Below are positions 30,583 through 34,364 of a stretch of 64,000 nucleotides of DNA, one piece after another. Origin of the DNA: Escherichia coli (GTDB taxonomy: Bacteria > Pseudomonadota > Gammaproteobacteria > Enterobacterales > Enterobacteriaceae); NCBI RefSeq assembly GCF_011045215.1, contig NZ_CP049201.1; one strand, written 5' to 3'. The notes under the pieces are model-generated. The model ran no database searches. It saw only the letters and a program-made list of their open reading frames with translations, and was not told the origin of the DNA. Made by a program: the position numbers and the translations under genes. Each line of letters opens with the position of its first letter. Within the stretch, counting starts at the first letter, position 1.

Positions 30583-31932
30583 TTATTTTTCCTGAAGACC
30601 GAGTTTTTTCTCCAGATAGTGGATGTTAGTGCCACCATGCTGGAAGTTCTCGTCATTCATGATGCGGATCTGCAGATCAATATTGGTCTTGATACCGTCG
30701 ATGATCAGCTCCTGCAGCGCATTCTTCATGCGAGCAATCGCCACGTCACGGTTTTCACCGTAGCAAATCAGTTTGCCGATCATTGAGTCATAGTACGGCG
30801 GTACAGTGTAGCCCGCGTAGATATGAGACTCCCAACGCACGCCAAAACCGCCAGGTGCGTGGAAACGGGTGATTTTGCCTGGGCTTGGCAGGAAGGTGTT
30901 CGGATCTTCGGCGTTAATACGGCATTCCACCGCATGGCCGCGAACATGAACCTCTTCTTGCTTGATCGACAGCGGTTGACCTGCCGCGATACGCAGCTGT
31001 TCTTTGATCAGGTCAACGCCGGTGATCATTTCAGTAACCGGGTGTTCTACCTGAATACGGGTGTTCATTTCGATGAAATAGAACTCGCCGTTTTCGAACA
31101 GGAACTCGAAAGTACCTGCACCGCGATAGCCGATATCAACACACGCTTTAGCGCAACGTTCGCCGATGTAGCGGCGCAGTTCCGGGGTAATGCCCGGTGC
31201 TGGCGCTTCTTCGACCACTTTCTGATGGCGGCGCTGCATGGAGCAGTCACGTTCCGCCAGATAGATAGCGTTGCCCTGACCGTCAGCCAGTACCTGAATC
31301 TCGACGTGGCGAGGATTTTCCAGGTATTTCTCCATGTAAACCATGTCGTTATTGAAAGCGGCTTTCGCTTCCGCACGGGTCATGGAGATGGATTGTGCCA
31401 GTTCCGCGTCGCCGCGCACTACGCGCATACCGCGACCGCCGCCGCCGCCGGAGGCTTTGATAATCACCGGATAACCAATGCGTTTAGCAATGGCGCGGTT
31501 TTTATCCATATCGTCGCCCAGCGGGCCGTCAGAACCTGGTACACAAGGAACGCCCGCTTTTTTCATCGCGGCGATTGCCGACACTTTGTCACCCATCAGG
31601 CGAATAGTGTCTGCTTTCGGGCCGATGAAGATAAAGCCAGAACGTTCAACCTGCTCGGCAAAATTGGCGTTCTCGGAGAGGAAGCCGTAACCCGGATGGA
31701 TTGCTACTGCGCCGGTGATTTCAGCGGCGCTGATGATTGCCGGGATGTTCAGATAACTTTTTACTGACGGAGCAGGGCCGATACAGACCGTTTCATCTGC
31801 CAGTAATACGTGTTTTAGATCGCGATCCGCGCTGGAGTGCACAGCGACAGTCTTGATGCCCAGTTCTTTACAGGCACGAAGAATACGCAATGCAATCTCG
31901 CCGCGGTTGGCAATAACAATTTTATCCAGCAT
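30583..31932 (-). CDS. accC: Biotin carboxylase subunit of acetyl-CoA carboxylase
   Basis: 449 aa from internal ATG ([33 protein letters not shown]...); ATP-grasp fold. Confidence 0.97.
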
Positions 31933-31942
31933 GTTCGCCTCG

Positions 31943-32413
31943 TTACTCGATGACGACCAGCGGCTCGTCAAATTCTACCGGTTGTCCACTTTCGACCAGA
32001 ATTGCTTTCACAGTACCGGATTTGTCTGCTTCGATCTGGTTCATCATTTTCATGGCTTCAACGATGCACAGGGTATCGCCCACGTTGACTTTCTGACCCA
32101 CTTCGATGAACGCTTTTGCGTCCGGGCTTGGGGTGCGGTAGAAAGTACCAACCATCGGGGAGCGTACGATGTGACCACTGATTTCCGCTGCTGCTGGCGC
32201 TTCCATGGAAGGAACTGTCGCCGGAGCGGCTGCGTTAGATTGAGCTGGCTGCTGCATCATTGGTGCAGCGTAAGCTTGTTGCATCACAGGGAAACTTGCG
32301 GCAGGAGCTGCACGGCTGATGCGTACTGACTCTTCGCCTTCGGAGATTTCCAGTTCGGAGATGCCTGATTCTTCAACCAGCTCGATCAGTTTTTTAATCT
32401 TACGAATATCCAT
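31943..32413 (-). CDS. accB: Biotin carboxyl carrier protein of acetyl-CoA carboxylase
   Basis: 156 aa; Ala/Pro-rich linker; biotinylation motif [10 protein letters not shown] near C-terminus. Confidence 0.97.
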
Positions 32414-33389
32414 GAGTGGGTTCCGTACTCTTTGTTTAGTGTGATTGTGACAGGCGTTTCACCGCCGTCTGTAAAGCGTATGCCCCGACAGCTGTATGCA
32501 TAGCGATAAATTCCAGCAGGCCGGGACGCCGGTCTATTTTGCCCCAGAGTGTCAATGTTAGACTTGACGGACATTGTGCAGCGATCTGCTGCTATCCTCC
32601 GGCAAAAAACAAAATATACCTTCGTTGCGCCAATGTCACCTTTTCCGCAGCGCAAAAACTGCGTCAGGGAGGACGAGGTCGCACATTATAACGATTTCGT
32701 AGCAATTGGCAGCTAAATACTGGTCTTATCAGGGAAGATAATCAACAGCTAACATGTAAATAACCTTCAACACCGTGTAATTTGCAACAAGCCGCACAAT
32801 TCACGAAATTAGCGCCATCATCGACGGAACTTCTTATAACGTAAGGTGAAAAGCTGTAAAGCCAGCCCTGCGAAGATGAGGGCTGCAATGAGATAATCTT
32901 CACAGACCACAAATAATGTAGGGATGCCAGGATCGCGACAAGATAGACGACATTACGCAGCGGTTGCTGGGGATTACCCAATTTTCACTGCATCGTCTGG
33001 ATAGATGTGAATGCTAAAGCACGCAAAATTAACCGATTGACAATGCTCAGCATTAAATAGGTTCGAGTGATTAATTTGTAGTCAAACAAAATCAGATTAT
33101 TCACCCCATGGTACCAGAAATAAGTAAGGGGTTAAGCGTAGCGTCGCCCAAGCAAAGCACCATAAACCTAACAGGCGACGGAGGCGTATCAATAATAGCT
33201 GTTTAGTGGAGTATCAATGCGCATCAATTTATGGTCAGTCGAAATCATGACTTTCCAGTTTGGATGATGTTGTACAACTTCATGACCAAGGTGTTCGACG
33301 AAAGCTGTCCGGCTAACCGCTTTTCCCGTTAACCGATTGAATAATGATTTCAAAATGAGTTCCCTCTCTTATTATTCCTTGCTAAATGG

Positions 33390-34364
33390 TTAGTTAACCT
33401 TCACCAGCGTGCGACCTTGGATCTGGTTATTAATGATGGCCTCGGCAAAGTTCGGTGCCTCTGACAGAGATATCTCTTTTGCCGCCTGGGTATAGAATGA
33501 TTCCGGTAAATCGGCGACCAGTCGCTGCCAGGCTTGTGCGCGGCGTTCTGGTGGCGTCATTACTGAATCCACCCCTTGCAAACGGACATTACGCAGAATA
33601 AATGGCATGACCGTGGTTGGCAGAGTAAAACCACCCGCCAGACCACAGGCCGCCACGCAGCCGCCGTAATTCATTTGCGCCAGCACTTTTGCCAGCACTT
33701 TGTCGCCAACGGTGTCAATTGCCCCAGCCCACACTTGTTTTTCCAGAGGACGGGATTCGGCAAACTCATCACGAGGGAGAATACGGCTGGCACCTAAACT
33801 TTTCAGATATTCATGGGTACTTTCGCGACCGGAAACGGCAACGACCTGGTAACCCAACTTATGCAGCAGCGCTACGGCGGTACTGCCGACGCCACCACTG
33901 GCACCCGTCACAACAATCTCTCCGTCCTGCGGGCGAACACCGGCATCTTCCAGCGCCATCACACACAGCATGGCGGTAAAACCGGCAGTACCGATAATCA
34001 TTGCTTTACGCGCGTCCAGCCCTTGCGGCATGGCAACCAGCCAGTCACCTTTCACTCGCGCCTGCTCCGCCAGCCCACCCCAGTGGTTTTCACCAACGCC
34101 CCAGCCAGTGAGTAACACCTCCTGACCGGCATGAAAACGCGGATCTTCGCTGGTGCATACAGTTCCGGCAAAATCGATCCCAGGAATCATCGGAAAATTA
34201 CGGATGATTTTTCCCTTACCGGTAATCGCCAGCGCATCTTTATAGTTCAGGCTCGACCAGTGAACATCGACCGTGACATCGCCCTCCGGCAGGCGACTTT
34301 CGTCCAGAGTCTGTACTGATGCGAGAGTTTTGCCGTCCTGCTGTTCTAAAAGTAACGCCTGCAT
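33390..34364 (-). CDS. acuI: NADPH-dependent acrylyl-CoA reductase AcuI (YhdH), MDR-family oxidoreductase
   Basis: 324-aa ORF MQALLLEQQDGKTLASVQTLDESRLPEGDVTVDVHWSSLNYKD...; quinone-oxidoreductase-like. Confidence 0.9.
   Translation of the reverse strand: MQALLLEQQDGKTLASVQTLDESRLPEGDVTVDVHWSSLNYKDALAITGKGKIIRNFPMIPGIDFAGTVCTSEDPRFHAGQEVLLTGWGVGENHWGGLAEQARVKGDWLVAMPQGLDARKAMIIGTAGFTAMLCVMALEDAGVRPQDGEIVVTGASGGVGSTAVALLHKLGYQVVAVSGRESTHEYLKSLGASRILPRDEFAESRPLEKQVWAGAIDTVGDKVLAKVLAQMNYGGCVAACGLAGGFTLPTTVMPFILRNVRLQGVDSVMTPPERRAQAWQRLVADLPESFYTQAAKEISLSEAPNFAEAIINNQIQGRTLVKVN

Follow-up and report, generated by a model that had tools for sequence, protein, structure and literature searches.

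The genes acuI (yhdH) and accB of Escherichia coli are separated by an interval of exactly 976 bp that holds no intact conserved gene. We analyzed this interval in a 64,000-nucleotide (nt) stretch of contig NZ_CP049201.1 (assembly GCF_011045215.1), hereafter called the window, where it occupies positions 32414-33389 and runs in the orientation reverse to that of K-12. The same gap was found in 5425 of 5426 complete E. coli genomes and is thus fixed in the species. In K-12 MG1655, the annotation within it consists of two pseudogenes, yrdF (b4697) and yrdE (b4646), with no product named for either; among the best 20 of the E. coli matches, no annotation lies under the gap. An earlier, sequence-only reading of the window had pointed out that the interval lacks a convincing gene, which our analysis bears out; the coordinates that it gave for the interval are exact, and the open reading frame (ORF) that it listed exists. 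It had also remarked that a gap of this size would have space for an unannotated regulatory RNA structure or small protein. For the size itself, our analysis favors another reason: roughly 60% of the interval is the debris of dead genes (yrdF and yrdE), and much of the remaining length would come from a decayed aroQ gene upstream of accB. The gap owes its size mainly to the death of three genes, two of which were already annotated as pseudogenes. Our best explanation, which we hold with considerable confidence, is therefore that of a gene graveyard joined to a working control region. The distal ~570 bp would be functionless, neutrally evolving junk, and the proximal ~400 bp would be the promoter and long leader of accBC, as the sequence-only reading had also held for the part next to accB. 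The promoter would be the ancestral promoter of aroQ-accBC, and the long leader would be what is left of the lost aroQ.

The aroQ ancestry of the leader emerges from a comparison of 80 accB loci among the matches listed, a sample without Salmonella. Most of the Enterobacterales loci examined have the order acuI, msrP (~335 amino acids, aa), msrQ (199 aa), ~235 bp, aroQ (150 aa), ~22 bp, accB and accC, where the product of aroQ is a type II 3-dehydroquinate dehydratase. The adjacency of aroQ and accB reaches as far as Vibrio, Aeromonas and Pasteurellaceae. An aroQ ORF is missing from E. coli, E. albertii, three Citrobacter species, Superficieibacter and Phytobacter. In an alignment of 11 species that extends from the end of msrQ to accB (alignment A1), the promoter block GATAATCTTCCCTGATAAGACCAGTATTTAGCTGCCAA.TGCTACGAAATCGTTATAATGTGCGAC is essentially unchanged, regardless of whether aroQ is intact. 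It is followed by the 5' untranslated region (5'UTR) of aroQ and the aroQ ATG, both of which are kept in E. coli. A large gap then opens in E. coli, E. albertii, Citrobacter and Superficieibacter, after which the sequences rejoin in a near-invariant aroQ tail, its TAA, the spacer and the ATG of accB. Because the promoter block, 5'UTR, start codon, tail and spacer are all retained, the accBC promoter is most readily understood as the old aroQ promoter, and the leader as the remains of aroQ.

The coding remnants are short. With intact AroQ proteins as queries, tblastn finds residues 136-150 in E. coli at 87% identity (E = 5e-5, in a small database), and recognizable AroQ coding is confined to these residues and the first ~7 codons. 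The middle is not alignable, and tblastn detects no AroQ similarity within 32484-32571. The fossil ATG and the fossil stop are separated by 139 nt, whereas an intact aroQ measures 453 nt, so that ~314 bp have been lost. Phytobacter has a longer decayed copy, in which residues 66-150 are found (E = 1e-6). Compared to the aroQ-accB-accC cluster of other gamma-proteobacteria, E. coli shares the promoter block, 5'UTR, start codon, last 15 codons, stop and 22-nt spacer, but it is without ~314 bp of the gene body and is unable to produce AroQ. E. coli relies instead on the type I enzyme, AroD. The end of the gene has properties of its own: third codon positions in the aroQ tail are more conserved than in the rest of intact aroQ, and a motif located 10-20 nt upstream of the accB ATG, GAGTACGGAA, is conserved across Enterobacterales. 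This motif and the low third-position variability of the last 15 aroQ codons point to a signal for accB expression that would overlap the end of aroQ. We found no relevant paper combining aroQ and accB with a pseudogene or with accC, and a paper that was inaccessible to us may describe this origin; the K-12 locus carries no annotation of an aroQ pseudogene. The derivation of the accBC leader and promoter from aroQ is the new element of this work, and a modest evolutionary insight. The features of the locus are collected in Table 1.

Table 1. Genes, relics and candidate control elements at the accBC locus, in window coordinates
Feature	Position	Strand	Description
accC	30583-31932	-	
accB	31943-32413	-	
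aroQ-accB spacer	32414-32435	-	accB ribosome-binding region; contains motif GAGTACGGAA
aroQ tail	32436-32483	-	last 15 codons and TAA stop, almost unchanged; near-invariant in A1
Scrambled aroQ body remnant	32484-32571	-	gaps in A1
Retained aroQ start codon	32572-32574	-	aligned with the ATG of intact aroQ genes in alignments A1 and A2
62-aa leader ORF (putative)	32386-32574	-	begins at the fossil aroQ ATG (K-12 3405275); overlaps the first 28 nt of accB
Candidate promoter P2	32611-32639	-	GTGACA, 17-nt spacer, TATTTT; predicted start near 32604
5'-proximal hairpin	32646-32663	-	CGCAG-UUUUUGCG-CUGCG; 15-35 nt into the predicted P1 transcript
Predicted promoter P1	32685-32712	-	CTGCCA, 16-nt spacer, TATAAT; predicted start near 32678; ~265-nt leader
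FadR-like half-palindrome	32720-32732	-	CTGATAAGACCAG; centered ~48 bp upstream of the P1 start; FadR assignment putative
Former msrQ-aroQ spacer	32735-32817	-	A1 columns 20-90; not conserved between genera
79-aa ORF	32742-32981	-	chance read-through; begins inside the msrQ relic and passes the relic's stop in another frame
yrdE relic	32818-33210	-	msrQ codons ~67-199 in three reading frames, with an in-frame stop
yrdF relic	33211-33353	-	first ~48 codons of a DUF1444-like gene; TTG start 36 nt past the acuI stop; remainder deleted in this strain
acuI (yhdH)	33390-34364	-	

The accBC genes form one operon, whose transcription follows growth rate and which is autoregulated by the N-terminal part of AccB, a protein that lacks any motif for binding DNA; a role as activator has been suggested for FadR (PMC3896788, PMC11602165). 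In addition, the small RNA OmrA is reported to lower accBC mRNA (2026 preprint). The same region, directly upstream of accB, is the one for which Li & Cronan (1992/1993) and James & Cronan (2004) described the accBC promoter and "unusually long leader". Within it, predicted promoter P1 agrees with the sigma-70 consensus at 10 of 12 positions and is essentially identical in the 11 species, with or without an intact aroQ; the same site is also predicted upstream of the intact aroQ of Pseudescherichia vulneris. The half-palindrome CTGATAAGACCAG is likewise identical in all 11 species of A1, and throughout Enterobacterales its core, AAGACCAGTA, precedes the aroQ ATG by ~153 nt. Read on the reverse strand, it is CTGGTCTTATCAG (32720-32732) and resembles the CTGGTnnGAnCAG-type palindrome that we take to be that of FadR. 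An invariant FadR-like site near position -48 of P1 would fit activation.

Downstream of P1, the pair TGACA and TA..TT is invariant in 36 species, always 17 nt apart and with free spacer sequence, and promoter prediction picks out this site in E. coli, P. vulneris and Yersinia. The pair is thus a probable second sigma-70 promoter, P2, rather than a stem, although the same element could alternatively be the 3' part and U-tract of a leader element like the Ysr190 RNA discussed below. The start-site supplements of Kim 2012 and Ettwiller 2016 contain no entry for an accBC start at this locus.

The distal part of the gap has a separate origin. The peptide obtained by stitching together three frames of yrdE matches the NCBIfam model for MsrQ (NF003831) with an E-value of 1.7e-22 and 80 bits, over profile positions 76-173 of 212; this score lies below the family's full-length cutoff of 130 bits, as the copy is truncated. 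The DNA of the relic shares 77.5% identity with the functional msrQ of K-12 over 382 nt. The working msrPQ pair of K-12 is located elsewhere in the genome, adjoining hiuH, and an intact msrP-msrQ pair occupies the equivalent position in most Enterobacterales loci examined. Because three frames need to be stitched, an in-frame stop is present, msrQ codons 1-66 are gone and there is no msrP partner (similarity to msrP was looked for in the gap and not found), yrdE, with its broken reading frame, is a pseudogene and not a gene. In several strains, RefSeq records a YedZ/MsrQ pseudogene at this position. A terminator scan finds no msrQ terminator in the E. coli spacer that follows.

The 79-aa ORF that the sequence-only reading had dismissed as a real gene begins inside this relic, and the dismissal was right: its residues 1-29 match MsrQ (NF003831, E = 2e-6), the remainder has no family match, and the whole is a chance read-through of decayed msrQ. 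Two details of that description need to be amended. The ORF is not simply of low complexity, given its MsrQ match, and it is not the sole ORF in the gap, as there are others of 89 aa (32386-32655, minus strand), 54 aa (33189-33353, minus strand) and 55 aa (32549-32716, plus strand).

The relic nearest acuI, yrdF, corresponds to the start of a gene that is intact elsewhere. Full-length forms occur in E. albertii (271 aa; locus L002, 3308-4123) and in E. coli FCI48 (276 aa; locus L083, 1502-2332), where RefSeq names it a DUF1444 domain-containing protein. The family assignment is approximate: the E. albertii protein matches Pfam PF07285 (DUF1444) weakly, with 18 bits against a cutoff of 23.8 and an E-value of 2e-3 over profile positions 15-253 of 264, and it matches NCBIfam PRK13668 with an E-value of 4e-5. 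The gene shows presence-absence variation in E. coli: about 660 of 5425 genomes (about 12%) give the split match expected of a long, DUF1444-intact form, one of which (FCI48) was inspected, and in the remaining genomes the gene is truncated to 48 codons. Both the window strain and K-12 carry a direct fusion, in which nucleotides 1-143 of the DUF1444-like gene run straight into msrQ at about msrQ nucleotide 197. The K-12 pseudogenes yrdF and yrdE have the same place and sequence as the distal 570 bp of the window, and our comparison supplies, by sequence similarity, an identity for each of these productless pseudogenes: yrdF as the first 48 codons of the DUF1444-like gene, and yrdE as msrQ codons ~67-199.

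Rates of change separate the two halves of the gap. Between E. coli and E. albertii, the msrQ relic is 81.9% identical and the third codon positions of accC are 81.6% identical. Because these two values are equal in effect, we conclude that the msrQ relic drifts neutrally. The promoter block (98.2%) and the aroQ tail with its spacer (98.5%) are far more similar, and the scrambled aroQ middle (95.7%) and the 5'UTR (88.5%) lie in between. Variation within E. coli follows the same division. A 630-nt probe from the distal relics is 95-99% identical in 4777 genomes and 90-95% identical in 199. For the proximal part, uniformity was measured with 321-nt probes by counting genomes at 99% identity or more. 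The promoter and leader probe (window 32380-32700) reaches this level in 5425 of 5425 E. coli genomes, compared to 849 genomes for a probe of the same length in the accB coding sequence, 479 for accC and 12 for acuI. The proximal ~400 bp are thus more uniform within the species than the neighboring essential coding sequence. Similarly, a 404-nt promoter-leader segment contains 26 differences between E. coli and E. albertii and 0 between the window strain and FCI48, where ~9 would be expected from the relic's ratio of polymorphism to divergence.

These observations suggest the following history. The comparison shows an ancestral Enterobacterales order of acuI-msrP-msrQ-aroQ-accB-accC, in which a single promoter region ahead of aroQ served aroQ and accBC together. 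In the Escherichia lineage, the DUF1444-like gene would have replaced msrP and the start of msrQ, while working msrPQ genes are found elsewhere, and the leftover msrQ would have decayed into yrdE. In most E. coli, including the window strain, the DUF1444-like gene would then have been cut down to the 48 codons of yrdF. Finally, ~314 bp of aroQ would have been lost. Selection would have kept what accBC needs, namely the FadR-like site, P1, the 5'UTR with its hairpin and the P2-like element, and the last ~70 nt before accB. The accBC genes would now be transcribed from the old aroQ promoter, with a leader of ~265 nt from P1 or ~190 nt from P2, the predicted starts lying near K-12 positions 3405171 and 3405246, respectively.

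It is important to consider several points that weigh against this explanation, despite our confidence in it. The middle of the leader is called an aroQ fossil on the basis of its position between a kept start and a kept tail. The boundaries of the deletion differ among Escherichia, Citrobacter, Superficieibacter and Phytobacter in this Salmonella-free sample. The short form of the distal region, found in the window strain, and the long, DUF1444-intact form are not interconvertible by one deletion, as judged from the sequences compared: msrQ codons 67-96 are kept in the short form and missing from the long form, and since each form keeps sequence that the other lacks, neither derives from the other by a single deletion. 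The positions of P1 and P2 and the predicted leader lengths derive from consensus and conservation only. Lastly, the uniformity of the leader within E. coli extends over parts that are not conserved between genera. Retention of a promoter alone does not explain this, and the uniformity is partly unexplained; it could reflect either a constraint specific to E. coli or the sweep of this segment through the species.

The uniformity of the leader thus raises the question of whether the fossil has acquired a new role. The entire ~400-nt segment, including the scrambled aroQ middle, which is found in no other genus, might have been reused as a sequence-specific regulatory element, either as RNA or through the 62-aa ORF, or might have spread in a recent species-wide sweep; we regard this pair of possibilities as doubtful. 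If it were correct, a reused aroQ fossil could underlie the still unexplained autoregulation by AccB or the growth-rate control of accBC. A related proposal, which we consider rather unlikely, is that the proximal part is a cis-acting regulatory RNA controlling accBC, whether an attenuator or a 5'UTR-derived small RNA homologous to Ysr190, and perhaps involved in AccB autoregulation. One piece of evidence for structure is the small hairpin near the 5' end. In a covariance-model alignment of 22 Enterobacteriaceae, 91.7% of the cells in its stem are paired, versus 75.4% in shuffles. The stems differ between species, five of the six pairs change on both sides, and the covariation score of 0.488 (0.226 in shuffles) is reached by 0 of 500 shuffles, with the limitation that this alignment was fitted to the structure model and that RNAalifold alone did not recover the hairpin. 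The sequence-only reading had suggested covariance analysis across Enterobacteriaceae; our comparison yields this one hairpin but no overall consensus fold. RNAalifold produced no usable consensus in any of three sets of 5'UTRs, from 36 Enterobacterales, 16 of the Yersinia/Serratia type and 23 Enterobacteriaceae. Folding the first 40 nt species by species gives a mean z-score of -0.57, and the full leader, with a z-score of -1.3, folds only slightly better than shuffled sequence.

Similarity to Ysr190 (Yersinia sRNA 190, RF02764) is another argument for an RNA. A search of Rfam over 31800-33800 at a permissive E-value returned only this family, and below its threshold, with 25.3 bits against a gathering score of 66 and an E-value of 0.39. 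This weak match nevertheless spans the full model, at the site orthologous to matches above the gathering score in three Yersinia species (96-131 bits) and Serratia (77.5 bits), which lie in the promoter/5'UTR of aroQ. The four matches (L058 4380-4481, L038 4238-4339, L036 4380-4481 and L023 4379-4480) lie ~36 nt upstream of the aroQ ATG. An alignment model built on the Ysr190 structure has 80.7% paired cells, versus 70.5% in shuffles, although RNAalifold does not recover this structure. Since the Ysr190 model begins inside the P1 spacer and takes in the P1 -10 box, it includes promoter DNA and is loosely bounded. Given that Ysr190 scores above threshold in Yersinia, the entry reflects short transcripts of the aroQ promoter/5'UTR that were catalogued there. 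Ysr190 is probably a fragment of the aroQ leader/5'UTR and not a free-standing small RNA.

Downstream of the Ysr190-like site is a U-rich tract, TATATTTTGTTTTTT, which would suit an attenuator, but a terminator scan finds no intrinsic terminator or attenuator, and no Term-seq 3' end is listed at the tract. Moreover, the invariant TGACA and TA..TT, at their constant distance, fit a sigma-70 promoter better than a stem. The sole published Term-seq 3' end near accB, at K-12 position 3405373 (window 32476), is 63 nt upstream of the ATG and could indicate termination in the leader, but it has few reads, and its Rho score (0.93) and intrinsic-terminator score (2.1, with a cutoff of 3) place it in neither class by the authors' scores. 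It directly follows a predicted stem in the scrambled aroQ remnant. On balance, the evidence for a regulatory RNA in the leader is thin.

The leader might instead encode a functional small protein or a regulatory upstream ORF that couples to, or modulates, accB translation and so replaces the former coupling of aroQ to accB. The putative 62-aa ORF is annotated as a gene by some pipelines, is intact in both E. coli and E. albertii, where its length is maintained by two compensating 1-nt indels ~30 nt apart, and overlies DNA that is essentially monomorphic in E. coli. Li and Cronan's 1993 study is said to mention an ORF, along with bent DNA, in the unusually long accBC leader. Despite these points, we consider a coding function highly unlikely. 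In Escherichia, the ancestral Shine-Dalgarno sequence upstream of the aroQ ATG has changed from AGGAG to AGCAG or AGCAA. C. werkmanii, C. youngae, Superficieibacter and Phytobacter lack any start-codon-bearing ORF that ends near accB, and a general need for translational coupling through such an ORF was rejected, as these four other lineages without aroQ manage without one. The remaining Citrobacter share only the C-terminal 22 residues, and this likeness is a by-product of invariant DNA read in a shifted frame. The one supplement of small-ORF ribosome profiling that was searched has no entry near accB.

Taken together, the suggestion that the gap harbors an unannotated RNA or small protein fares unevenly. 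The sub-threshold Rfam match, the failure to obtain an RNAalifold consensus, the z-score of the leader and the restriction of the 62-aa ORF to Escherichia tell against it. The covarying hairpin and the unusual invariance of the leader across E. coli genomes nevertheless make some regulatory content beyond the promoter plausible.

For the distal, AT-rich part, we give almost no credence to an unrecognized functional gene or small RNA on either strand. Its GC content does fall to 0.40-0.44, the plus strand has promoter-like matches at 32888-32917 and 33168-33196, and some genomes list the 54-aa yrdF remnant as a hypothetical protein. However, the four promoter-like matches compare to a mean of 1.9 in shuffles (standard deviation 1.5) and are thus within ~1.4 standard deviations. 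This part diverges at the neutral rate, is polymorphic and varies in presence and absence between strains, and it has no match in Rfam, Pfam or NCBIfam other than MsrQ.

Under the graveyard explanation, the region is mostly ordinary and was largely annotated beforehand; it has a neat history but adds no new type of element. The account is tidy and leaves our understanding of the pathway unchanged. What it may explain is the length, long regarded as unusual, of the leader ahead of accBC, whose products act in the first committed step of fatty-acid synthesis: this leader would be the remains of an upstream cistron. It also singles out conserved blocks worth targeting (the FadR-like site, P1, the 5' hairpin, the P2-like element and the final 70 nt ahead of accB), while the ~90-nt middle of the leader is the first part to examine for AccB autoregulation. 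The leads that are left are the covarying 5' hairpin, the probable second promoter and the strikingly uniform leader.

Some minor observations concern the DUF1444-like gene and the distribution of the region. Homologues of the DUF1444-like protein are nearly all in Escherichia. One that is 63% identical lies on a short contig (L085, 1-5501) beside KfrA_N, Aca2/YdiL and DUF7352 genes, neighbors that hint at a plasmid or other mobile-element context; a plasmid origin was rejected, as matches in the plasmid collection were only mislabelled chromosomes. The unusual C-terminal tail of E. coli MsrQ (KKLRSLFNRLRKQV; K-12 msrQ, L082 4484-5119) resembles the N-terminus of yrdF (LKSLFNRLTGKAV; window 33330-33353). 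As a recombination junction, this likeness was discarded as coincidence, with a protein E-value of 0.19 and a DNA similarity matched by 267 of 500 shuffles. Of the 5426 complete E. coli genomes, one lacks the whole region. A copy of the region is present in one record that is typed as a plasmid, and several multi-megabase "plasmid" records are evidently chromosomes.

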